Notes: a model not told the origin generated them from the sequence alone. Shown: positions 4,960-54,835, numbered from the stretch's first letter. The stretch: DNA of 64,000 bases from a virus (IMGVR_UViG_3300008262_000040), one strand, 5' to 3'. Numbers and translations: made by a program.

Positions 4960-6255
4960 TTACCAAAAGCCTGTGAAGTTTGATTTGAGTCCCAATAGGC
5001 TTGCATACCGTGGAAGTCTGCAACTCCAGTATTTTGGTGTGGTCTTGTCTTTTGCTTGGGAACACTTGTGTCTTGCTGCGAACGACTTCCTCGCCTCTGG
5101 ATTGTTTATCTTTGCGCTTAAGCCAGTGGTGTCTCCAAAAGTCAGCTTCTTTATTCCTCCACCAGGCTTTCTAACGTAAACGTAGAACTTTTTGGGTCCT
5201 CCGCGCTTGGGTTTGTTTAGCTCTGGTTGCTTTTTCTTTGACTTGCTTTTGACTTCCATCAAGAATTCTAGAGTCATAGGAAAGTCTAACGGCACTCTTA
5301 CGCCTTCGTACATTCCCCATTTTCCTAGATCTGTATTGTTGAAGTACCACTCATCTTGTTCTGATAATTGCAGCTTATTGTTTTCGTATAAAACTCTAGC
5401 TTCTTCAAACAGTTCAAGAAACTTGGACGATTGCGGTCTGTATATTGATTCGTTAAGATCTATCTTATTGTCTAAGTGGTAGATCATGCCTTCGGATAGC
5501 AACAGTCTATTCGCTGTTTCATTCAAAGATATTGATCTTGAACAACACTCTTCTCTTACTAATTTTGCTAACATTGGGTTTCCTCCTGATTTTATTTTTT
5601 CGAAAGCGTCTTTAAAAGCATCTATAGTTGATTTTAAAGTATTGTATATCGTAGCTATTCCTATTCCTATTTTTTCAAGCCAACTTTTTAACGAAGAGAA
5701 TCCGCCTGTTACGAATCCACTTAGCGTTTCTATAGCTGCGTCTGATAGGTAGCTTTGCAAATATTTTAAAACCTCTTGTTTTATGCTATCTTTTGATAGA
5801 TCTACGCTCTTAAATTTGTCGTAAAAAAATTTTGCTACTACGCTAAAACCTATTGATGCTATTAACTTTCCTATAGGATTGCTAATATTCTTTATTTTTT
5901 GTAAAATATCGTTTAGTAGTTCGCCTTTTTGTATTTTTTGTAAAACCGCGTCTATTGTTTTTTTTATTTCGCTCTTTTCAAATGTTCTTATCAAAGAGTT
6001 AGCGAAATTGGTAGATAGTCCGTCTTTTATAACGGTGTAGAGAGTAGATGCAAAATCCTTAAAGTCTTTAAACCCCTTTAAAAAACTATCTGTTACATTT
6101 CCAGCAAAAGATTTCAACGTATCTATAAAACCTTCGTATAACAGCTGTTGTTCTACTATTAACGGAAGTTTATCTTGCGGTATCGATATTGATTCGTTTA
6201 ACGGAACTTCTATACCTAAAACATATTTTATATGATGTCTAGATAAATTATGCAT
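4960..6255 (-). CDS. Multidomain probable head protein with a basic C-terminal domain
   Basis: Repeated LxE sites; C-terminal GGPKKFYVYV...FGD...SFAARHKC...YWSC. Confidence 0.55.
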   Translation of the reverse strand: MHNLSRHHIKYVLGIEVPLNESISIPQDKLPLIVEQQLLYEGFIDTLKSFAGNVTDSFLKGFKDFKDFASTLYTVIKDGLSTNFANSLIRTFEKSEIKKTIDAVLQKIQKGELLNDILQKIKNISNPIGKLIASIGFSVVAKFFYDKFKSVDLSKDSIKQEVLKYLQSYLSDAAIETLSGFVTGGFSSLKSWLEKIGIGIATIYNTLKSTIDAFKDAFEKIKSGGNPMLAKLVREECCSRSISLNETANRLLLSEGMIYHLDNKIDLNESIYRPQSSKFLELFEEARVLYENNKLQLSEQDEWYFNNTDLGKWGMYEGVRVPLDFPMTLEFLMEVKSKSKKKQPELNKPKRGGPKKFYVYVRKPGGGIKKLTFGDTTGLSAKINNPEARKSFAARHKCSQAKDKTTPKYWSCRLPRYASLLGLKSNFTGFW

Positions 6256-6263
6256 GTTCTCGT

Positions 6264-6542
6264 TTACTTAAACTTTGCATTTATAGAATTTATCACAGCG
6301 GATCTGTTAGATACAGTCATTTGTGGTAAAAGTTCTATTATTTTATTTAAAACGTCAGAAATTTCTTGTTGATTCTTAATGCCTTTTATTAGATCCATCA
6401 AAGGAGCGTTCGATTCCATTCTTTTTGCTATAGTTTTACCAGTGCTAGTTTTTAGCTTTGTTTGAGCTGGTTGGGTTGGCGCGATTGGTTGTTCGTTTAC
6501 CTCATTTTCTTTCAATATATCAAACAGTTTTATGTGTTTCAT
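6264..6542 (-). CDS. Hypothetical protein with IKLFDILKE leader
   Basis: ORF in operon context; leader motif. Confidence 0.6.
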   Translation of the reverse strand: MKHIKLFDILKENEVNEQPIAPTQPAQTKLKTSTGKTIAKRMESNAPLMDLIKGIKNQQEISDVLNKIIELLPQMTVSNRSAVINSINAKFK

Positions 6543-6562
6543 CGTTTATTATTCTTTTAATA

Positions 6563-7006
6563 TTAAAATTTTTCATTAGCTATTTGATACAATAAAGATT
6601 GTTGAGCTTTTAGATAACCAGTGCTACTTCCAGATTCTTCATCGTATCCTTTATATACGCTACCTTCTTTTCTAGCTATAATCACTTGTAGTTGATTAGG
6701 TTCTATACTTATTATACTTTGAGTACTATACTTATCTTTTGTGTTTACACCTTTTGAGATCATATTGTTTCTGTTACCTAAAAATTCTTTGGCTAGTTTA
6801 ACTAATTCTTGAGCTTCTGGTACAGACAGTGTTATTTGATTATCTTCGAATCCTGCGCCTAACACGCTAAGAGTTATTTGTTCGTTTCCCTCTTCGCTTT
6901 TTGTTTTTAATACGCGAAGTTGATCAACAGCTTCATCTATTTTATTTTCTTTTAAAATACCAGCTAACTGCTGCATTCTTTTGATCTCTTTAATCGATTG
7001 TTTCAT
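6563..7006 (-). CDS. Hypothetical protein with RMQQLAGILKE leader
   Basis: ORF; leader shared with 8019..8282. Confidence 0.6.
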   Translation of the reverse strand: MKQSIKEIKRMQQLAGILKENKIDEAVDQLRVLKTKSEEGNEQITLSVLGAGFEDNQITLSVPEAQELVKLAKEFLGNRNNMISKGVNTKDKYSTQSIISIEPNQLQVIIARKEGSVYKGYDEESGSSTGYLKAQQSLLYQIANEKF

Positions 7007-7007
7007 C

Positions 7008-7379
7008 TTATTGCAAGTTTTTAAGCTTGTATTTGGTTGTTTCTATAAGATCAACTATGGTATCAACTTGGTTCTGTACGTACGAGTCCTGTGGAATTGC
7101 TTTTCTAGCTGTCTCTACGAACTTACAAAGTGATTCGAAGTAGGACACAAAGCCGTTGTCTTCTTTTATAGCTCCTACCATTTGGTACCCTTTAATTATA
7201 CCGTAACGGCCCTGTATTCCCTCTGCTACAGCATCTACCAAAGGTACTATTCCTTCGTAATATGCTTGTAGAGCGAGATGTGCAGCGTGAGATCCAGGTC
7301 CTGTAACCTGAAGGTGGTAAATGTGGGCTTGGTTTCTGCTCTGCATCAACGTCCCTAAGAATAGTCCTACTGTTTCCAT
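7008..7379 (-). CDS. Ferritin/Dps-like four-helix protein (DUF5856-like)
   Basis: QAHIYHLQ...HLALQAYYE...D.VAE..QGRYG ferroxidase-type pattern. Confidence 0.65.
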   Translation of the reverse strand: METVGLFLGTLMQSRNQAHIYHLQVTGPGSHAAHLALQAYYEGIVPLVDAVAEGIQGRYGIIKGYQMVGAIKEDNGFVSYFESLCKFVETARKAIPQDSYVQNQVDTIVDLIETTKYKLKNLQ

Positions 7380-7382
7380 GGT

Positions 7383-8003
7383 TTATTTTTTTTCTTTTTT
7401 ATCCTCTTTCTTCTCGATCTCTTTCTTGCTCTTCTCTATCTTTTCGAGTTTTGTTATGTAATCGTCTATCTTTGTAGCGAGATCAGCTATGGCTGTTTTG
7501 TGTTCGCTAGCGTTCTTTGGATCTTCTTTAGCTGCGTCCATGTGCTCCTTACGCTTCTTCTCAAGCTTATCTATTGCTTTCTTTAGCTTCTCTGTAGTAT
7601 TGCCCTTCTTCTCCTCAAGCATTTTTACGCCCTCTTCGTACTCCATGCACACCTTTTCAGCTATCATTTTTGCTACATCAGCACTGGGATAGACCCCGTG
7701 CACTTGGTCAGGAGTTATTTCTGTTCCTGATATTCCATTAAGCGGATCGATTGGAGCTACCAGTGAGTCTGGGGTGCATCCGGGGTGAGCCATTTTAACA
7801 ACAAACAGTTCGCGTATGGCACCGTCTTCAACGCTTTCGTTCTTTTTAGTTTTTTTAGGTTTAGAAGCCATCTTACTTAGCTCTTTTTCGCTAGTGTTTT
7901 TTGCTATATCTGCTACTTTTTTGCTTATTGGTTCAGATTCTCCGCGTTTTACCGCTAGAGCGGCACCAAATAATTTTCGCTGTTTTTCGTTAGACGTAGG
8001 CAT
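7383..8003 (-). CDS. DUF3008-like N-terminus plus coiled-coil protein
   Basis: MPTSNEKQRKLFGAALAVKRGE...SEKELSKMAS. Confidence 0.45.
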   Translation of the reverse strand: MPTSNEKQRKLFGAALAVKRGESEPISKKVADIAKNTSEKELSKMASKPKKTKKNESVEDGAIRELFVVKMAHPGCTPDSLVAPIDPLNGISGTEITPDQVHGVYPSADVAKMIAEKVCMEYEEGVKMLEEKKGNTTEKLKKAIDKLEKKRKEHMDAAKEDPKNASEHKTAIADLATKIDDYITKLEKIEKSKKEIEKKEDKKEKK

Positions 8004-26113: not shown

Positions 26114-26460
26114 TGGCAACTCAAGAGGTTAGTCTGATAAAGCTTGTTAAAGGCACAAATACCTATACATCTGTAATTGATACCGAGTTTACAGAGCTTG
26201 TTAGCCCTATTGAAGAAACTACAGAAGTAGCAGTTACAGTTGAAAGATTTTTTGAGTTATATGATGAATTGTTTTTCGATATACCTGTAGACGGCGAATT
26301 AAACTCACACAAGTATCTAGTAAATAGAAGTACTCAGTATTTGGGATCAAATGTTATAGATGCGGAAAAACAAGCTTTGATTGAAGAAATAAATTCTTTG
26401 AGATCTCAATTAACAGAATTAAATAATAGTTTTATAACTGCAAATAACATAGTACAATAA
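26113..26460 (+). CDS. Small structural protein
   Basis: Translationally coupled ORF. Confidence 0.55.
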   Translation: MATQEVSLIKLVKGTNTYTSVIDTEFTELVSPIEETTEVAVTVERFFELYDELFFDIPVDGELNSHKYLVNRSTQYLGSNVIDAEKQALIEEINSLRSQLTELNNSFITANNIVQ

Positions 26461-44091: not shown

Positions 44092-44577
44092 ATGTCAAAT
44101 TGGTTGTACGAGGGGAAAGAGATCTCTAGCATCTCTGAGTTCCCAGAAGGTTGCGTTGGTTTCGTATACATGATCACAAACACTACGAACGGGAAGTTCT
44201 ACATTGGAAAGAAGACGCTTCACAACACTCTCACAAAGAAACTCACAAAGAAAGAAGCGTTGAACTGGGATAAACCGGGTCGCATACCAAAGAAAAAGAA
44301 GGAAAAGAAAGAAAGCAACTGGATCGACTACAACGGTAGCAACAAAGCATTACAGGAGGACATAAAGCTCATAGGCATACAGCACTTTCACAGGGAGATA
44401 CTGGAGTTCTGCTTCAACAAAAAACAGTGCACTTACTACGAAGAGGCATGGCAACACAAGCTTCGAGTGCTTCACGTAGACTCATACAACGATACGATAG
44501 CGGGAAGATACTATAGAAGGGACGTTAAACCAGACCCAGAACTGCACCCGAGTTCATCCTTGCAGCCAAATTCCTAA
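44092..44577 (+). CDS. GIY-YIG family endonuclease-like protein
   Basis: GFVYMITNTTNGKFYIGKK...Y.GS...E...YN. Confidence 0.7.
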   Translation: MSNWLYEGKEISSISEFPEGCVGFVYMITNTTNGKFYIGKKTLHNTLTKKLTKKEALNWDKPGRIPKKKKEKKESNWIDYNGSNKALQEDIKLIGIQHFHREILEFCFNKKQCTYYEEAWQHKLRVLHVDSYNDTIAGRYYRRDVKPDPELHPSSSLQPNS

Positions 44578-44599
44578 GACGGGTTAACGTATAGACCAT

Positions 44600-44624
44600 A
44601 AAAAAGGAGCTCCAATGAGCTCCC
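44600..44624 (-). terminator. Rho-independent terminator after the lysis cassette
   Basis: GGAGCTC/GAGCTCC hairpin plus T-run on -; same stem as 46686-46710. Confidence 0.7.
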
Positions 44625-44646
44625 ATTTATTTTTGGTAATGTTGTT

Positions 44647-45246
44647 CTATTTCAATAGGTTATAGTACTCTTTGAAGTGCTTTATACGATCAGGTAAACC
44701 TATAGTACCGCCGTTCACTCTTTTTGTTACCGACGTTACTACTGCGTCAGTAGCACCACCGTCAGCAATCTTGTGTAATCCGTTCTTGTGAAAGAACCAA
44801 GCAGCGGATAGCAACGGATACTTGGTTGCTACTAGATCAGGATTGTCTAGAATGGATTCAGCTACCACAGCATCAAATGCTTTGTAGTTGTCTTTACCGG
44901 TTAGTTGGATGTAGCCGCGGCCTCTGAATTTCCAGCCTTCACCAGATGCTTCAGGTCCGTTACCCATTCTACCACCATATACTAGGTTAGCAATCTTTTC
45001 TGGCTTGCGCTCGTATAAAGCTGCTTTCTCTGGTGTTGGGAAATACTTCTTGAAGATCCCTAATAGACCTTTAGCGCCGTAGTTTAGATTCTCGTTTACA
45101 GCCTTAAAGCCTCCGCTCTCGTGTCCAGCTTGAGCTAGGAAGTGAGCTAAGCGGAGCGGTGTATTTAATTCGAATTTTGCGATTGTGTCCGGTAACTGTG
45201 CGATAACAGTATCAGGAATGTGTCCTTTTAGTTTGTTAATGTCCAT
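44647..45246 (-). CDS. Endolysin, glycoside hydrolase family 19
   Basis: LAHFLAQ..HESGGF, RGRGYIQLTG..NY, VTKRVNGG..GL.DR. Confidence 0.9.
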   Translation of the reverse strand: MDINKLKGHIPDTVIAQLPDTIAKFELNTPLRLAHFLAQAGHESGGFKAVNENLNYGAKGLLGIFKKYFPTPEKAALYERKPEKIANLVYGGRMGNGPEASGEGWKFRGRGYIQLTGKDNYKAFDAVVAESILDNPDLVATKYPLLSAAWFFHKNGLHKIADGGATDAVVTSVTKRVNGGTIGLPDRIKHFKEYYNLLK

Positions 45247-46685: not shown

Positions 46686-46710
46686 AAAAAAGGAGCTCTG
46701 GTGAGCTCCT
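46686..46710 (-). terminator. Rho-independent terminator after the modification operon
   Basis: AGGAGCTC/GAGCTCCT hairpin plus T-run. Confidence 0.7.
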
Positions 46711-46769: not shown

Positions 46770-47765
46770 TCAATACATTAGGTTTCTTTCGTGGATACTA
46801 CTTAAAAACTGCGGTGTGTTACCCAAATTGAACCTATCGTTGAATATCCATGTGTAGGGAATGTTCTTAGTTGGACGCTTCTCTCCGTGAGATATAGCTA
46901 TGTGTTTCCAAAAGAAGCACGTTTTATCTTCTACGTTCAAGTACTTTTGAACTTTCATCGGATTGGAAGGGTGTTCTACCAACACTTTCATCTGTCTCAG
47001 CCACTCGTCAGCGTGTTTGTTTTCAGGTATAAACTCACCGGAGCTATTCACAGAGTACTTGACCTTACCGTTTAGGTTCTGACCGTCGAATATCTGGTGA
47101 AGTCCGTCGAAGTGTCCCGTACCTCCAAAAAGTATGGACTCTGGATCTACAAGCCACGGATAGGACATAGCTACGTATCTGGCTGTGTTCTTACAGGGAT
47201 ACAAGGGGCTTCTGAAGTTCTGGTGCTCTTTGAAGTAGGACTCAAGAAGCTTTGCAAACCCCATCATCGTAAACTTTGGTCTGATTCCCTTTTCAACCTC
47301 GTCCAATACGTAGTACAAATCTTCAGCAGCTTTCTTAGGTCCTTCCAGAATCCACTCTTTAACGTTCGTGCCTTTTGGATAATATATCTGAAATAGATCG
47401 TTTCTAGCGTGTCTGTTTTCTTTGAAGTGCTCTCTTGCTGCGTCTATGCCACCGTTGTACAGTTTTATGAAAGTACCCCAGTGCTCGTTAGTAAAAGAGA
47501 ATACAAGCGTGTAGAATAGTCTCGCTCGATTGTCTATTACATCTTGCATGTACTCACAGTATGGGTGTTCGTGCCAATGGAGACGGTGAGAGAAGATCTG
47601 GTACTCTGATTGAAGTAGATCGTCCTGTCTGTCGTCGAACTTGTGACAGAACTCGAAGAACTTGTCTATGCGTTCTTCTTCGGTCCAATCCTTCATCCAC
47701 GATCTGATTGGCTTCTTTCCTTTGAACGGCACTTCGCACGTGTTGTTGTAGATTATGTTGCTCAT
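46770..47765 (-). CDS. Putative aGPT-Pplase / amino acid:DNA transferase-like protein, paralogue 2
   Basis: ARYVAM..P..VDP.S....GTG and NVEDKTC align with the equivalent motifs of 47762..48943. Confidence 0.45.
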   Translation of the reverse strand: MSNIIYNNTCEVPFKGKKPIRSWMKDWTEEERIDKFFEFCHKFDDRQDDLLQSEYQIFSHRLHWHEHPYCEYMQDVIDNRARLFYTLVFSFTNEHWGTFIKLYNGGIDAAREHFKENRHARNDLFQIYYPKGTNVKEWILEGPKKAAEDLYYVLDEVEKGIRPKFTMMGFAKLLESYFKEHQNFRSPLYPCKNTARYVAMSYPWLVDPESILFGGTGHFDGLHQIFDGQNLNGKVKYSVNSSGEFIPENKHADEWLRQMKVLVEHPSNPMKVQKYLNVEDKTCFFWKHIAISHGEKRPTKNIPYTWIFNDRFNLGNTPQFLSSIHERNLMY

Positions 47766-48943
47766 AGTCCGTAGTGTTCTTTTACTTTTTGTTTGTATTG
47801 CTCTTCTGTTAAGTTTAACGATTTTAAGACTTTATCGTCCGATGGATGCTCTTTTATGCCGTTGAAAGATGGTACAAGCCCAAGATCAAGCATCGCTCTC
47901 TGTCTTCCGTACGGGTGATCTTTAATGCTTGAACTGTTCCATACGTGATCGAAGTCAAGGTGATCGTAATCAGCTCCTGGTTTAACGTAATTCTCAATCC
48001 AACGTATGCTATCACAAGCGACGTCCTCTGCGTTGTACGGATAGCTACCGGTGTCCTCGTATATCTTCATCATCACTGCATCCAAGAAGTCTTCTTTCTG
48101 CATCTTTATGGTTTTGGTAGCAAGGTATTCGATGCACTCAATGGCGTTTGTACCGTAGTAGAACGGGCTCTCCCTGTTCACAAACTCAGGGAACCAGTCT
48201 GCTATGTCTGCTATGAACGCTGCGTATTGGAATTTAAAAGCTTTAAGTCCACGGTCCTTGTTCCACTGAAACATGAAGTCACCTACCTCACGCAAGTTCT
48301 TTTTACCGCCCTGTTCCAAGAAAGCAGCAACGTCCTCTGCCAACTGTGGTACGTATTCGCAAAGGAAGTAGTCTCCTCCACGCTTGTATCTGCCCTGTGG
48401 TTTTGGAAAGCTTGGGAACTGGTAACCTATCGATGTGTAGAACGGTCTGATTGCCTGTTTGATTATTTCCGTCATCTGAGGAATGTTATCAGCTTTGTGC
48501 ATGTCAAACAGAAGCGTATTGTGGTAACCAGAAGGCTTCATAGAATAGTTGATAGCCGAACCAGTTAATCTGTGAAACAGAAACAGGTACAGCCACTCTC
48601 TAAGACCGAAGACGTTTCGTTTGCCCGTCCAGTTCTTAGACACTGTTTCCCTTTGCCTAGACATCAGTCCGTCCTTCATCTTGTTCCAGTACGGATGATC
48701 CTCTGAGAAACCGTAGAAGCAATCGTTGACTATTTGCGAGAATCCTGCGTACTTCCTTTCAACCACATCGTACAGTTCTACGTGTTTCATGAGGTCGTCG
48801 TTAACGCTCGAATCGCAGTGTTTGATTCTTCCAAGGTTACACTCTTCCTGTTGTATCTTTGCCATCTCGAAGTACTTTAGAAACTCTTCGTAGTACTTTG
48901 TAGGCTTAATGTATTTAACTAGTTCTGTTGCTGTTCTTGTCAT
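47762..48943 (-). CDS. Putative aGPT-Pplase / amino acid:DNA transferase-like protein, paralogue 1
   Basis: LFHR, FQYAAFIADIA..FP..V...S..Y.GTNA...I..L and NAEDVACD resemble HhH-derived base-modification enzymes. Confidence 0.5.
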   Translation of the reverse strand: MTRTATELVKYIKPTKYYEEFLKYFEMAKIQQEECNLGRIKHCDSSVNDDLMKHVELYDVVERKYAGFSQIVNDCFYGFSEDHPYWNKMKDGLMSRQRETVSKNWTGKRNVFGLREWLYLFLFHRLTGSAINYSMKPSGYHNTLLFDMHKADNIPQMTEIIKQAIRPFYTSIGYQFPSFPKPQGRYKRGGDYFLCEYVPQLAEDVAAFLEQGGKKNLREVGDFMFQWNKDRGLKAFKFQYAAFIADIADWFPEFVNRESPFYYGTNAIECIEYLATKTIKMQKEDFLDAVMMKIYEDTGSYPYNAEDVACDSIRWIENYVKPGADYDHLDFDHVWNSSSIKDHPYGRQRAMLDLGLVPSFNGIKEHPSDDKVLKSLNLTEEQYKQKVKEHYGL

Positions 48944-49995
48944 TGTATTCTGCTGTTTTGTTGATTTAATTCGTAATCCCAGTAGTGAAACTCCCTGGAT
49001 ATGTGTACCGATTGAGGCTTCTCCATTACTTTAAAGTCCAATTCATCTACCTCGTTAGTGAACACCTCAGGCACCTTATACACAGACCAACCGTTTTCCA
49101 AAGCTAATAGTGTTAGTTTAATGTTAATGTATTTAGAGATAGCCGTTCGTTCTTCCCAAGTACCGAAGTATGGCATCTTCTTATACCAACCAGTCTTAGG
49201 TATCTTTCTAGAAACGTTCTCGATAGGCAGCACTTCAGTCAACGTAATCGATTCTAAGTTAAGCGACAAAAGCTGTTGTTTTAAAGACTCAATCATCTCA
49301 TCAACAGACTTGAGCGGGTTCTGCTGTCTCATGAGGTGGTGCCTAACGTCTATGTTTCCCATGTAAACGATAAGCTCTTTTACCCAAGGAAACACGTACG
49401 TGCTAAGACCGCGATTCAAAGCTCCGTACATAGTAAGTCCGTCATTTCTAGATACCATCCAGCCCGGTCTGTAAGTACTGAAGCAGTGCGAATCACCAAA
49501 GACAAGCTTATCAGTCTTTTCGATAAAGTCAATACGAGGAATCGAAGTAGAACATATTTCGTTAGCTTCGTCGGCTCTCTCCAATAGAGTTCTGAACTGT
49601 TCTGTACCCGTGCGGTGTCTTTCTTTTATCAGCTTACCGATGGGCGGCATGTCGATGTGCAGAGAGTAGATGCGTACTCCTTTTGTAAAGATGCGTTTGA
49701 CCTGATCGTACAGTTCGTCGTTAGCGCCACCGAATATATTGAAGGTGCCTTTGAACTCCATACCGTGCTCGATTAATATAACGTCTAAGTCAGACCAATC
49801 TGTCTTTTGGTCGTGTATGAGTGTGACGTTCTCGTAACCAGCGTGTCGCAATTGGTTAACGATCATGGTGGGCCAACCAGCCTTGTGGGAAGATATTTGC
49901 TTGCTTATCTTGCCAACGATGGCTGACACGCCAATCTTCACGCTCTTGTCTTTTTCGTAGTCTGTGAAATAAGTGAAATTGAAGTTGTTATCCAT
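48940..49995 (-). CDS. Two-domain protein with an SGNH-hydrolase/acyltransferase-like C-terminus
   Basis: LVFGDSH (block I), G, YMGNID (block III), SVH (block V). Confidence 0.5.
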   Translation of the reverse strand: MDNNFNFTYFTDYEKDKSVKIGVSAIVGKISKQISSHKAGWPTMIVNQLRHAGYENVTLIHDQKTDWSDLDVILIEHGMEFKGTFNIFGGANDELYDQVKRIFTKGVRIYSLHIDMPPIGKLIKERHRTGTEQFRTLLERADEANEICSTSIPRIDFIEKTDKLVFGDSHCFSTYRPGWMVSRNDGLTMYGALNRGLSTYVFPWVKELIVYMGNIDVRHHLMRQQNPLKSVDEMIESLKQQLLSLNLESITLTEVLPIENVSRKIPKTGWYKKMPYFGTWEERTAISKYINIKLTLLALENGWSVYKVPEVFTNEVDELDFKVMEKPQSVHISREFHYWDYELNQQNSRIQ

Positions 49996-50001
49996 GTTTG
50001 T

Positions 50002-50247
50002 TTATTTTTCGTATTTGTGTTTTATAGATTCGTACAACTCTGGAGAGTACTTCTTACACAGCTTTACGAAGTAGGCGTCCTTCACCGCTTCGTCTTCTGT
50101 TGTTTGGTACTCTATCAAGTCTCTTAATCTAGCTGCCATTTCGTATCTTTCTGTATCAACGCACCAATCCATTCTACTTTTCATTAGATCAACGAAAGCT
50201 GATTTTGTGTCGTCTAATTCCTGTTGTAGGTCGTATGGATGATTCAT
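50002..50247 (-). CDS. UVR (UvrB/UvrC)-motif protein
   Basis: M...V..ERYEMAARLRDLI. Confidence 0.7.
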   Translation of the reverse strand: MNHPYDLQQELDDTKSAFVDLMKSRMDWCVDTERYEMAARLRDLIEYQTTEDEAVKDAYFVKLCKKYSPELYESIKHKYEK

Positions 50248-50999
50248 ATGCTTTTGTTTTTAATTCTTTCAAATAGTGCCGTTATCTGTCTTGTGTAGTT
50301 CTCTTCGTCAGTTGTTAGTGGCTTCTCTTCGTCGACCCATTCGTCTATGCCGTTGCTTATGCCCATGATCTTGATGTGTTGGGCTCCCTGCTGATTTAAC
50401 GCAATCTTCTCAGTCTTTTCTATTGCTTCTCCTATAGTTCTAGCCATAACACAACAAACATAATCTCCCCGCTTATTCCAGTTGTTTATGAAATATCTGT
50501 CGTCCTTATAGTGAAGGTAATATACAACCATCGGTTTCCAGGGCGAAGCCTCACGAGCTAGTCTTTCGACCTCCTGTCTTGCCCAATCAACGTACCAATT
50601 CAATACGTGATCGTCTACTTCTATGTCGTATTGAAACAGTTGAAACACTTTCCATGAATCTAAAGCGTATCTGCCAACACCTCTCATCTTTTCAAGTAAT
50701 GAAATTGGAACAGAAGTACCATAATCTTCAACTGCCTCCATCCACTGTTTGCTGAACTCCTTCCAAGACTTTGCTCTCCTATTGTAGAATCCGAGGGTTT
50801 TGATCATGGAGGCTATTTCGGACTCTTCTGCCGCTACCAAAGCCTCAGGGGTTGGGAACCTATCGAAGAACTCGTGGCGAACCTGGTCGACCTGCTTGTG
50901 ACTTGTTTGGTTTAACATGAAGCACACCATTAACATCTTCCAAGGATCTTCTCTGTACTCCTCTTGCCTTGTGTTGTAGGGGGAAATCTGTAACTTCAT
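50244..50999 (-). CDS. MBD4-like HhH-GPD DNA glycosylase with a C-terminal extension
   Basis: SPYN..QE....DPWK.L.....LN.TS, LGFY..RAK, GVGRYALDSWKVF, DHVLNWY.DW. Confidence 0.85.
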   Translation of the reverse strand: MKLQISPYNTRQEEYREDPWKMLMVCFMLNQTSHKQVDQVRHEFFDRFPTPEALVAAEESEIASMIKTLGFYNRRAKSWKEFSKQWMEAVEDYGTSVPISLLEKMRGVGRYALDSWKVFQLFQYDIEVDDHVLNWYVDWARQEVERLAREASPWKPMVVYYLHYKDDRYFINNWNKRGDYVCCVMARTIGEAIEKTEKIALNQQGAQHIKIMGISNGIDEWVDEEKPLTTDEENYTRQITALFERIKNKSI

Positions 51000-51067
51000 A
51001 ACTATTATTATATGCTAATATACACAATTAGCTTTGATACGTGCGATAATTCTTTCAAGTACAAACG

Positions 51068-52849: not shown

Positions 52850-52864
52850 GATAATATAAATATG

Positions 52865-52946
52865 TGCCCCATGAGAGACTCGAACTCTCACACCTTACGG
52901 AACCAGATCCTAAGTCTGGCGTGTCTACCAATTTCACCAACGGGGC
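52865..52946 (-). tRNA. tRNA-Leu(UAG)
   Basis: Cloverleaf; CCAGA-CTTAGGA-TCTGG; long variable arm; CCA not encoded. Confidence 0.92.
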
Positions 52947-52951
52947 ATAAA

Positions 52952-53104
52952 AAAGGAGTAAAACAGAAGATGGGCGCGTGGACATCTGTTTCTACGACCG
53001 GCGTTACTTGAGTATCTAAGCTTGTCATTGACTAATTCAAGACGTTGTTGTCTACTCCTCCTCGGGCACCTTTGTAGGTTACCTTTCCCCGATCAACCTC
53101 CTTT
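52952..53104 (-). ncRNA. Putative structured ncRNA
   Basis: Ends pair (AAAGGAG/CTCCTTT); internal stems AAACAGA..GATG/CATC..TCTGTTT and TCGGG/CCCGA; no ORF. Confidence 0.45.
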
Positions 53105-53147
53105 GAGACGCATCTGTGTTCAGAAGTTTAGTTACAGCTCTTTAACT

Positions 53148-53462
53148 TTATTTTACTCTTTTGTTATTAATATAATCATTGAAGACTTTGTGTAGATCCT
53201 CAATTGATCGTTCTTGTTTGTTGTTTAGCTTGTCGAGTCTAGAATCTAGTTGAGAGTTAAACGCTTGTTCGGTGCTTTCAAACTGTTGCCACACCCGACT
53301 ATGTTCAATATTATTCATTCGACTATTATCAATTAAATTCTGCTCCAAATCTCTAGTATAATTTTTCAATTTTGTTACCTTAACAATACTTACCACAGCA
53401 ACTATTGCAGTAGCAATAACCACCACGGAAGCTATTCCTAAAATAAAGAAAAGTGTTTCCAT
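53148..53462 (-). CDS. Membrane-anchored coiled-coil protein
   Basis: N-terminal TM. Confidence 0.65.
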   Translation of the reverse strand: METLFFILGIASVVVIATAIVAVVSIVKVTKLKNYTRDLEQNLIDNSRMNNIEHSRVWQQFESTEQAFNSQLDSRLDKLNNKQERSIEDLHKVFNDYINNKRVK

Positions 53463-53500
53463 TTTTTTAATCTCCTATATGCCAAAGAGCTGTAACTATG

Positions 53501-53572
53501 TACCACCAACGAGAATCGAACTCGTGACTCCTCCGTGAAAGGGAGGCGTCTTAACCCCTTGACCATGGCGGC
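53501..53572 (-). tRNA. tRNA-Glu(UUC)
   Basis: Cloverleaf; CCTCC-CTTTCAC-GGAGG. Confidence 0.92.
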
Positions 53573-53793
53573 AAATTAACACCCTAATTTATCCAACTTA
53601 CAGGCGTTATGGCTGTCCTCACAAAGGATTCTTAAGGTCCTTTTTTTCTTTGGTGAGTTAGGAATAGATCTTTCAAGCTCGCCACCCAAGGAGATCAACC
53701 CATAGTTAATAAGTAACTAACACTTGACCATGTAGTAACAACTCTACTTCTCATCATCCAGGACTGGACTATCCGTTTGTTAGTCGGAACGTG

Positions 53794-53894
53794 CAGCCAA
53801 GATGGGACTCGAACCCATAACGTGGTCTCGTAAAGAGAAGCTTAACCGTTTAGCCTTACCGGGCTGGGCCCGTTTACATATCCACTACTTGACT
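53794..53894 (-). ncRNA. tRNA-like RNA 1 (no canonical anticodon arm)
   Basis: Acceptor AGTCAAG/CTTGGCT; T-arm ATGGG-TTCGAGT-CCCAT; central region has two small hairpins. Confidence 0.6.
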
Positions 53895-54026
53895 ATTTGC
53901 AACTTATTCCGGATGTCAGTAGGAAAGTTGCCAAACCTATCCAGCTTACGATCTGGCTCTTGTATGCGAGCTGTTCTTACGGGAAGCCCAAGAGGAACTA
54001 CGACCCCGTGGCCTGCGGGCACTTTG

Positions 54027-54101
54027 TTGCGAGGGGCGGATTCGAACCACCGTCGTTCGGCTTATGAGACCGAGCTGGAACCATCTCCAGTCCACCTCGC
54101 C
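54027..54101 (-). tRNA. tRNA-Met(CAU), initiator-like
   Basis: TCGGT-CTCATAA-GCCGA; 1:72 mismatch; atypical D arm. Confidence 0.8.
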
Positions 54102-54104
54102 TTT

Positions 54105-54209
54105 TTACTTTTTACAATAATACTTACAATACTCTTTCAAACCGTGTATGATCCACAAAGTACCAAGTACAAGAATAATCAATCTAATTATGATCTCTAA
54201 TTTTGACAT
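54105..54209 (-). CDS. 34-aa membrane peptide (MSKLEIIIRLIILVLGTLW...)
   Basis: Hand translation; fills the gap between RNA genes. Confidence 0.4.
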   Translation of the reverse strand: MSKLEIIIRLIILVLGTLWIIHGLKEYCKYYCKK

Positions 54210-54223
54210 CGTAACCTATTTTG

Positions 54224-54379
54224 CTGTCAGGGGAGGATTCGAACCTCCACGCTGGGATTCGGTAAGGGACAACATAGCCGGCTTGTGGTCAACCCATATC
54301 CAATTACCTATTTCCTGTTCAGCGCCCTCGAGACGAGAGGGTGTGTCTGCCGTGCGTATACGCATTTCACCACCTAACA
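54224..54379 (-). ncRNA. tRNA-like RNA 2 (giant variable arm)
   Basis: Acceptor TGTTAGG/CCTGACA; T-arm GGAGG-TTCGAAT-CCTCC; CCCTC/GAGGG arm lacks U33; ~75-nt arm closed by CGCTG/CAGCG. Confidence 0.65.
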
Positions 54380-54388
54380 GTTTCCGTA

Positions 54389-54538
54389 TTACTTAGTGCT
54401 ATCTACAGCTACTTTCACGGAATCAACTACTGTAGAATCGACTGTTGTAGAATCTGTAGTTACTGGTTCTGTGCTCTCTCCTGAGCCACATGCTGCGAAG
54501 GTCAAAGCCATCGCGATCACAAACATTGCTTTTTTCAT
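54389..54538 (-). CDS. 49-aa lipoprotein with D-S-T/V repeats
   Basis: Hand translation MKKAMFVIAMALTFAACGSGESTEPVTTDSTTVDSTVVDSVKVAVDSTK; lipobox FAA-C. Confidence 0.8.
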   Translation of the reverse strand: MKKAMFVIAMALTFAACGSGESTEPVTTDSTTVDSTVVDSVKVAVDSTK

Positions 54539-54568
54539 GTTTATTTATGGTTTTTGGTTAAAAAATGC

Positions 54569-54748
54569 TTACTTTATCCATTCTGACGATGCTAGCGCCA
54601 TCGCCTCTTGTATACTTATGCTAGAATTCTCTTTCATGAACTTTAAAGCCCAAGCTGTTACTTCTACTATCAATCCATGGTTGTGAGCTTCAGTCAAGTA
54701 GAACTCTACGCTTTGTAAATCGTCTTCTGTTATTTTTATTCTACCCAT
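54569..54748 (-). CDS. 59-aa hypothetical protein (MGRIKITEDDLQ...SEWIK)
   Basis: Hand translation; co-oriented with neighbours. Confidence 0.6.
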   Translation of the reverse strand: MGRIKITEDDLQSVEFYLTEAHNHGLIVEVTAWALKFMKENSSISIQEAMALASSEWIK

Positions 54749-54761
54749 TGTTTTTCTTATG

Positions 54762-54835
54762 TGGACCCTTCAGGGCTTGAACCTGAGACCCCCTGATTAT
54801 GAGTCAGGTGCTCTAACCAACTGAGCTAAGGGTCC
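54762..54835 (-). tRNA. tRNA with CAU anticodon, probably Ile2 (lysidine type)
   Basis: GGACCCT/AGGGTCC-A; CCTGA-CTCATAA-TCAGG; TAGCTCAGTTGGTTAGAGC D arm. Confidence 0.88.

Follow-up and report, generated by a model that had tools for sequence, protein, structure and literature searches.

A minus-strand operon of five genes, designated G, U, C, B and A in order of transcription, occupies positions 46770-50999 of a 64,000-nucleotide stretch of virus DNA (IMGVR_UViG_3300008262_000040), the whole of which is referred to here as the window. Relatives tie this operon to 5-hydroxymethylcytosine (5hmC), and the DNA of the phage therefore probably contains a cytosine modification not described before. 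The reading favored here is that 5hmC would be hypermodified by an amino acid:DNA transferase (AADT) route that uses no known kinase, with a probability of about 0.7 for synthesis of the hydroxymethylated nucleotide and action of the transferase taken together. A preliminary description, made from the sequence of the window alone, had proposed a base-hypermodification operon and left its substrate open between 5-hydroxymethyluracil (5hmU) and 5hmC; the hypermodification context stood, and the 5hmU of phages phiW-14, ViI and M6 was set aside in view of Asp177 in the associated synthase, as described below.

AADTs in the cited literature act only on phosphorylated 5hmU, and the hypermodified cytosines described there carry sugars or a carbamoyl group (PMC8989533; PMC11472151; PMC8670742). 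The present system would work like the M6/ViI/PaMx11 pathway, but on 5hmC and without a known kinase. If true, such a kinase-less transferase pathway would mean a DNA base not known before and perhaps also new activation chemistry, in a phage group whose sequences form hundreds of clusters. Literature searches, of incomplete coverage, returned no description of this system and no paper joining SGNH with these terms.

The transferase-fold paralogs and the base they would modify

The thymidine pathways of M6, ViI, PaMx11, phiW-14 and SP10 comprise a dUMP hydroxymethylase, a 5hmU DNA kinase (5-HMUDK), aGPT-Pplase/AADT proteins of families PF18723 and PF18724, and a pyridoxal phosphate (PLP) enzyme (PMC8989533). 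With these the operon shares a transferase fold derived from helix-hairpin-helix (HhH) enzymes, a catalytic-type E-x-x-x-C, a paralogous pair of genes and, in the genomes of relatives, a PLP enzyme. The fold, which the preliminary description had proposed for both paralogs, was recovered with A: its structure model (pLDDT 95.7) found its best match among 48,161 PDB chains in PaMx11 gp46 (8z2m; Z 9.3, rmsd 4.2, 218 aligned), followed by queuine-salvage and HhH glycosylase structures, and its matches among the viral structures of BFVD were AADT/HMUDK_hel proteins. By profile comparison, A aligned to the active-site motif of M6 gp55 (E 0.0017) and lay nearer to clade 1, to which gp55 belongs, than to M6 gp51; the profile comparisons of A with gp51, and of B with gp55 and with the inositol-linked transferases discussed below, were not significant. 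Homology between A and B was not significant by BLASTP or shallow hhalign. With deeper profiles hhalign gave 75% (E 2.6e-5, 199 columns) and 96% (E 1.8e-9, 155 columns), these alignments pairing the A..A...P..V...S...G and E-D-x-x-C motifs on which the two had earlier been called divergent paralogs. Atlas features placed B beside PF18723/PF18724 (score 0.97), with A near the same clusters, and by these features and its paralogy to A, B probably has the aGPT-Pplase/AADT fold.

Near the C-terminus of both proteins lies a catalytic-type Glu-x-x-x-Cys (E279/C283 in A, E306/C310 in B) that is kept in all homologs covering it; E306, D307, C310 and R314 of B are invariant in 71 of 71 homologs. The motif corresponds to Glu243/Cys247 of PaMx11 gp46, where the Cys attacks C6 and the Glu binds metal (PMC11472151), and the corresponding residues of M6 gp51 and ViI gp247 are essential (PMC8989533). 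B is the probable core transferase. Given that A is nearest to gp55, which is not required for the first transfer step in M6, we infer rather than assert the activity of the pair. The homologs fall into 934 sequence clusters for B, 437 for A and 458 for C, and a tblastn search found no relative of A or B among cultured phages.

The identity of the base is suggested by genes outside the operon. Two near-complete relatives, G001 (179.6 kb, with a B 78% identical) and G003 (183.4 kb), carry, far from the operon, a PLP enzyme, a DUF6378 gene, a dUTPase-family gene and a thymidylate-synthase homolog, accompanied in G001 by a dCMP deaminase; the PLP enzyme (PALP, E 8e-5) occurs in G001 through G004. 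Both synthases have Asp at ThyA positions 143, 169 and 177, as do 42 of 45 synthase homologs. Asp at these positions denotes a dCMP substrate, a non-methyl product and an enzyme that is not a 5-hydroxy synthase, together the signature of 5hm-dCMP synthesis (PMC13326640). Asp177 recurs in relatives G007 and G015, in Aeromonas phage 44RR2.8t and phage 25, and in phage contigs inside metagenome-assembled genomes, whereas the M6 dUMP enzyme has no Asp at 177; a separate ThyA-type gene is kept in G001, G015, 44RR2.8t and phage 25. The synthase signature in relatives thus points to a cytosine-derived target, presumably 5hmC. Of the hydroxymethylase and kinase for which a search of the rest of the genome had been advised, the former has its counterpart in this dCMP-type synthase of relatives (and a PLP enzyme came with it) and the latter was not found in 24 records, many of them partial. 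The glycosylated 5-hydroxycytosine of RB69 and DLP3 is likewise a cytosine modification made via a thymidylate-synthase homolog with Asp177, but their synthases are D169N and their payload enzymes arabinosyltransferases, unlike those here (PMC13326640); a 5-hydroxycytosine synthase was rejected, D169 being kept.

These genes also travel together. Among 30 hydroxymethylase loci with at least 4 kb upstream, C was near the hydroxymethylase in 23, a PLP gene in 21 and a B/A-like gene in 15; contiguous synthase-B-A-PLP-C cassettes occur on the T4-like contigs L245 and L257, and the hydroxymethylase is fused to a B homolog in proteins of about 600 aa on L270, L272, L279, L282, L286 and L291 (E 2e-9 to 7e-14). 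A second set of loci, non-redundant by B sequence, comprised 27 window-like and 47 polymerase-linked loci, with counts biased by the fetching queries (many polymerase-linked loci were fetched with C) and by relatedness. In these respective groups, A was present in 27/27 and 26/47, C in 4/27 and 47/47, and a PLP gene nearby in 0/27 and 36/47. The fusions on L270 and L286 lie at 6010-7824 and 6004-7821, and the arrangement is split by an inserted gene in L289 (6004-8661); these loci have C upstream and lack a nearby PLP gene. What the present locus adds is a split arrangement, an accessory MBD4-like gene and, through its relatives, the synthase-B fusions.

The SGNH protein and the activation gap

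The operon differs from the M6/ViI pathways in its linkage to a dCMP-type hydroxymethylase, in that no 5-HMUDK was found, in having an SGNH protein as constant partner, and in that A and B score under the thresholds of the Pfam models. Its cytosine-type hydroxymethylase, known from relatives, and the failure of searches of mostly partial records to recover the kinase place it outside the M6/ViI/PaMx11 pathway. The SGNH partner is C, whose structure model (pLDDT 91.8) has an SGNH fold over residues 156-347 (Z 14.2, rmsd 2.9, 153 aligned), in agreement with the earlier call of an SGNH-like protein; among solved structures it comes closest to carbohydrate esterases and O-acetyltransferases. The SGNH blocks are represented by S169, G186, N214 and H331, of which G186 occurs in 79 of 80 homologs and the other three in all 80. 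There is no Asp at the D-x-x-H position, position 328 being K or Q; the role of the triad Asp may fall to the invariant E325, or the site may work as a Ser-His dyad.

The N-terminal domain of C aligned with residues 53-99 of T4 beta-glucosyltransferase (BGT) (hhalign 82%, E 1.1e-5, 46 columns), and in this alignment D115 falls on BGT Asp100, which we take to be the catalytic base. The likeness to the acceptor domain of BGT is suggestive only; the domain had no sequence match in the PDB, and full-length C was not significant against either T4 BGT or the glycosyltransferase-like protein of phage 25. Structure searches with C were filled by SGNH-domain matches, with the N-terminal domain outside their reach, and prediction of a complex between B and C scored 0.00, which is no evidence either way. 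With the glucosylation of 5hmC in T4 (gp42 and BGT), the system has in common a gp42-type synthase signature in relatives and, weakly, the acceptor-like domain up to the catalytic Asp. Unlike in T4, the C-terminal domain of C is an SGNH domain in place of the BGT-type UDP-glucose-binding domain, the putative catalytic Asp varies among homologs, and the transferases are of the AADT fold. As C is without a sugar-donor domain, this is not glucosylation of the T4 type. That a phage enzyme can acylate the 5hmC hydroxyl in DNA is known from the 5hmC carbamoyltransferase, which makes 5-carbamoyloxymethylcytosine; that enzyme, however, is of another class (carbamoyl transfer), its product is the end point, and the main text of the paper makes no mention of SGNH, aGPT or PLP (PMC8670742).

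In 44RR2.8t, C is fused to an HMUDK_hel-like domain (ORF233c), and in another group genes for inositol-phosphate synthase and an HAD phosphatase lie between C and a transferase. Since the transferase domain of ORF233c aligns with those linked to inositol-phosphate synthase, and a gene for a sodium:solute symporter comes before the fusion (L100:6414-10394), 44RR2.8t may take up its payload instead of making it. C would appear suited to fill the activation gap, combining a 5hmC-acceptor-like domain with an acyl-enzyme domain, standing constantly beside the transferases and being fused to one of them. The preliminary description had the SGNH protein acylate or trim the modification once installed. 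Because the expected 5hmU kinase was not found, C may act before the transferases instead. With a fusion of C and transferase present in a cultured phage, the idea is testable now, and if true it would give a function to the unannotated ORF233c gene of cultured Aeromonas phages.

The proposed pathway and its alternatives

As a first step, the thymidylate-synthase homolog, encoded elsewhere in the genome, would make hm-dCMP, an activity predicted from the signature in relatives, and through this synthesis 5hmC would be built into DNA. In the second and least certain step, the BGT-like domain of C would bind 5hmC-containing DNA and its Ser-His SGNH site would acylate the 5-hydroxymethyl oxygen, creating an ester leaving group that replaces the 5-HMUDK phosphate of M6 and ViI; that C supplies this ester is offered tentatively. 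B, with or without A, would then add its Cys to C6 and expel the leaving group, with an amino acid adding to the exocyclic methylene, as its fold and catalytic residues would predict. Finally, the PLP enzyme, a gene known from relatives, would decarboxylate or otherwise trim the adduct. The glycosylase encoded by gene G would probably remove deaminated bases (5hmU, U or T) mispaired with guanine. Other hypermodifications protect DNA from nucleases, and protection from host nucleases is the likely purpose here. A broader proposal, doubtful as it stands, is that a widespread phage group makes aminoalkyl cytosine free of any kinase, with a chimera of BGT-acceptor and SGNH domains esterifying 5hmC and AADT-fold enzymes exchanging the ester for one of a set of interchangeable payloads: an amino acid here, inositol in other relatives. 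Enzymes acting on 5hmC in DNA could also become labeling tools for this epigenetic base.

A number of observations weigh against the pathway so described. Pfam, PHROG and NCBIfam hold no family for A or B. Both proteins, and their close homologs, miss the Pfam models HMUDK_hel (PF18723) and ADDT (PF18724), and among deep homologs of A only 5 of 43 match PF18723, weakly (best E 0.0038). The Z of 9.3 between A and gp46 is modest for a helical protein, and B owes its fold placement to paralogy and Atlas features, not to a model of its own. The synthase and PLP genes are known from the genomes of relatives, not from this phage, and a 174-kb relative, G002, shows no synthase, though C and PLP genes sit at its contig end. 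The compared loci are related and not independent. M6 gp54 had no match in 24 records, nor had PF18748 or PF18751 in 5 each, but these three profiles were run against mostly partial records (four virus records were rated complete), so that a divergent kinase could be missed. In C, an Asp of the D115 type is found in 71 of 80 close but 13 of 22 distant homologs. Lastly, Aeromonas phage 25 and Tenacibaculum phage PTm5 have C with no match to three transferase profiles, and sugar-type genes are seen in these phages.

Since C occurs in phage 25 and PTm5 where no transferase was detected, it is not only a transferase activator. An alternative shares the pathway on 5hmC but would have C act late or in reverse, acylating or deacylating the finished substituent (amine, inositol or sugar), with activation falling to an unrecognized kinase or to the transferase itself. 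This alternative competes with the second step only and comes closest to the earlier notion of an enzyme that acylates or trims. It is in keeping with the carbohydrate esterases and O-acetyltransferases that are the nearest solved folds, and with the varied payload kits that C accompanies: B/A with a PLP enzyme, a transferase with inositol-phosphate synthase and HAD phosphatase, and, in phage 25, UDP-galactopyranose mutase with a glycosyltransferase-like protein. The kinase searches, which found none, speak against this alternative, as do the resemblance of its N-terminal domain to the 5hmC-acceptor half of BGT and the fusion in 44RR2.8t, which parallels the fusions of kinase and helical domain in SP10. 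Because C fits the activation gap, yet is present in phage 25 and PTm5 without a transferase, activation and late tailoring are given roughly equal odds, each being possible and neither favored.

Less probable is a transferase whose substrate is not DNA but a mononucleotide, hm-dCMP or hm-dCTP, modified ahead of replication. The fusion of B homologs to dCMP hydroxymethylase, a nucleotide-level enzyme, on several contigs would suit such a route. Against it, the fold belongs to DNA enzymes that flip bases, DNA is the substrate of the characterized AADTs (PMC8989533; PMC11472151), the two parts of the fusion are separate in L289/L290, and in this phage group the hydroxymethylase gene is distant from B. 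There is similarly little likelihood that A and B are repair or base-removing enzymes in an operon that mends modified DNA and does not write it. The HhH glycosylase fold, co-transcription with an MBD4-like glycosylase and a UVR-motif gene, and the nearest profile being that of clade 1 (M6 gp55, dispensable for the first transfer in M6) are what such enzymes might show; the invariant Glu/Cys pair of AADT type, the regular association with a PLP enzyme or inositol kit, the lack of a clade-2 ADDT elsewhere in G001 or G003, and the absence of the glycosylase from 47/47 polymerase-linked loci argue otherwise. Hypermodification of thymidine via 5hmU, as in M6, ViI and phiW-14, is very improbable and was rejected: every characterized AADT uses 5-phosphomethyl-dU, and dCMP deaminase and dUTPase genes adjoin the synthase, but Asp177 is present in every linked synthase examined, unlike in the M6 dUMP enzyme, an ordinary ThyA is present as well, and searches of 24 records, many of them partial, turned up no 5-HMUDK.

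Accessory genes and surroundings of the operon

The features of the operon are collected in the table. All five open reading frames were confirmed at the positions given by the preliminary description, which had called them tightly coupled; their junctions are three 4-nt ATGA overlaps and one 6-nt gap.

Features of the five-gene operon and its flanking signals (window coordinates)
Feature	Position	Strand	Length	Description
G	50999-50244	-	251 aa	MBD4-like HhH glycosylase (aa 6-148) and C-terminal domain (aa about 150-251)
U	50247-50002	-	81 aa	UVR-motif protein
C	49995-48940	-	351 aa	N-terminal alpha/beta domain, then SGNH domain
B	48943-47762	-	393 aa	Probable aGPT-Pplase/AADT-fold protein; E306-D-x-x-C310, R314
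A	47765-46770	-	331 aa	Second aGPT-Pplase/AADT-fold paralog; E279-D-x-x-C283, K287
Terminator-like hairpin	51096-51071	-		Closes upstream transcription unit; 10-pair stem, T tail
Promoter-like GTATATTAG	51023-51015	-		About 15 nt before the G start; putative function
Intrinsic terminator-like hairpin	46710-46691, T run to 46686	-		Ends the operon

The call of an MBD4-like glycosylase was upheld, G matching HhH-GPD (E 6e-12) and, over residues 6-148, MBD4 as its best match (E 1e-20, 143 residues). Its Q12, Y111 and D130 match MBD4 Q449, Y540 and D560, the first two of which read T and 5hmU and the last of which catalyzes excision, with the 5-hydroxymethyl group uncontacted (PMC3479182). G departs from MBD4 at Arg468, a finger that locks the flipped base (PMC3479182); the position is Q31 in G and Gln in 49/49 aligned homologs. 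It departs also in its added C-terminal domain (50244-50550 in the window), which is of no known family. In relatives this domain is often a separate protein of 87-137 aa, encoded upstream of B or C, and it is more constant among them than the glycosylase domain. U matches UVR (E 1.4e-4), as had been noted. The proposal that the five genes act as one system did not survive comparison of loci. The glycosylase domain is near B in 21/27 window-like but 0/47 polymerase-linked loci, the C-terminal domain of G in 25/27 and 5/47, and U in 1/27 and 0/47; an obligate five-gene system was rejected on the counts for the glycosylase domain and U. G is accessory, and U a passenger.

Both flanking signals of the preliminary description were located. 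The terminator it had placed at 46686 is the end of the T run that follows the last hairpin. The promoter-like element, given as 51014-51023, is present one base shorter and recurs in relatives, GTAYATTWR standing at the same spacing from the start codon in 5 of 11 and TATATTTA in 2 more, but it is not a sigma-70 match, a sigma-70 scan making no call at GTATATTAG; its resemblance is presumably to the Bacteroidota -7 element. Inspection of the window's open reading frames by eye, not by profile search, showed no hydroxymethylase or kinase, as had been stated, and there is no PLP gene in the window. The neighborhood of the operon is typical of a large tailed phage, with a long plus-strand block, an endolysin-like gene, a GIY-YIG gene and tRNAs. 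The GIY-YIG (SegE-like) gene and the endolysin-like gene, of glycoside hydrolase family 19, are just downstream of the operon (44092-45246), and four minus-strand tRNA genes (Leu, Glu and two Met) lie at 52864-54835. Dinucleotide odds gave no clear modification signature. Codon use within 46770-50999 strongly prefers C-ending codons in two-codon families (0.65-0.75); by the same measure the long gene at 26460 scores 0.32 and the G001 ortholog of B 0.24.

Further genes were noted at related loci. Phage 25 has its C homolog in a row with genes for UDP-galactopyranose mutase and a glycosyltransferase-like protein that lacks Pfam support (L101:5755-9026), and a gp42-type synthase elsewhere, which suggests that this phage may make galactofuranosyl-5hmC. 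In PTm5 (L206, about 122-124 kb), a divergent thymidylate-synthase-like gene lies beside kinase-like and phosphatase-like genes, a group reminiscent of sugar-type cytosine modification clusters. A gene of about 400 aa, cytosine-methyltransferase-like by eye, follows C/transferase in T4-like cassettes (L244:9005-10201, L245:9059-10258, L251:9101-10312 and L172), and in many relatives B and A are separated by an extra gene of 160-190 aa that matches nothing in Pfam (L068:9444-10001 and some 50 further loci).

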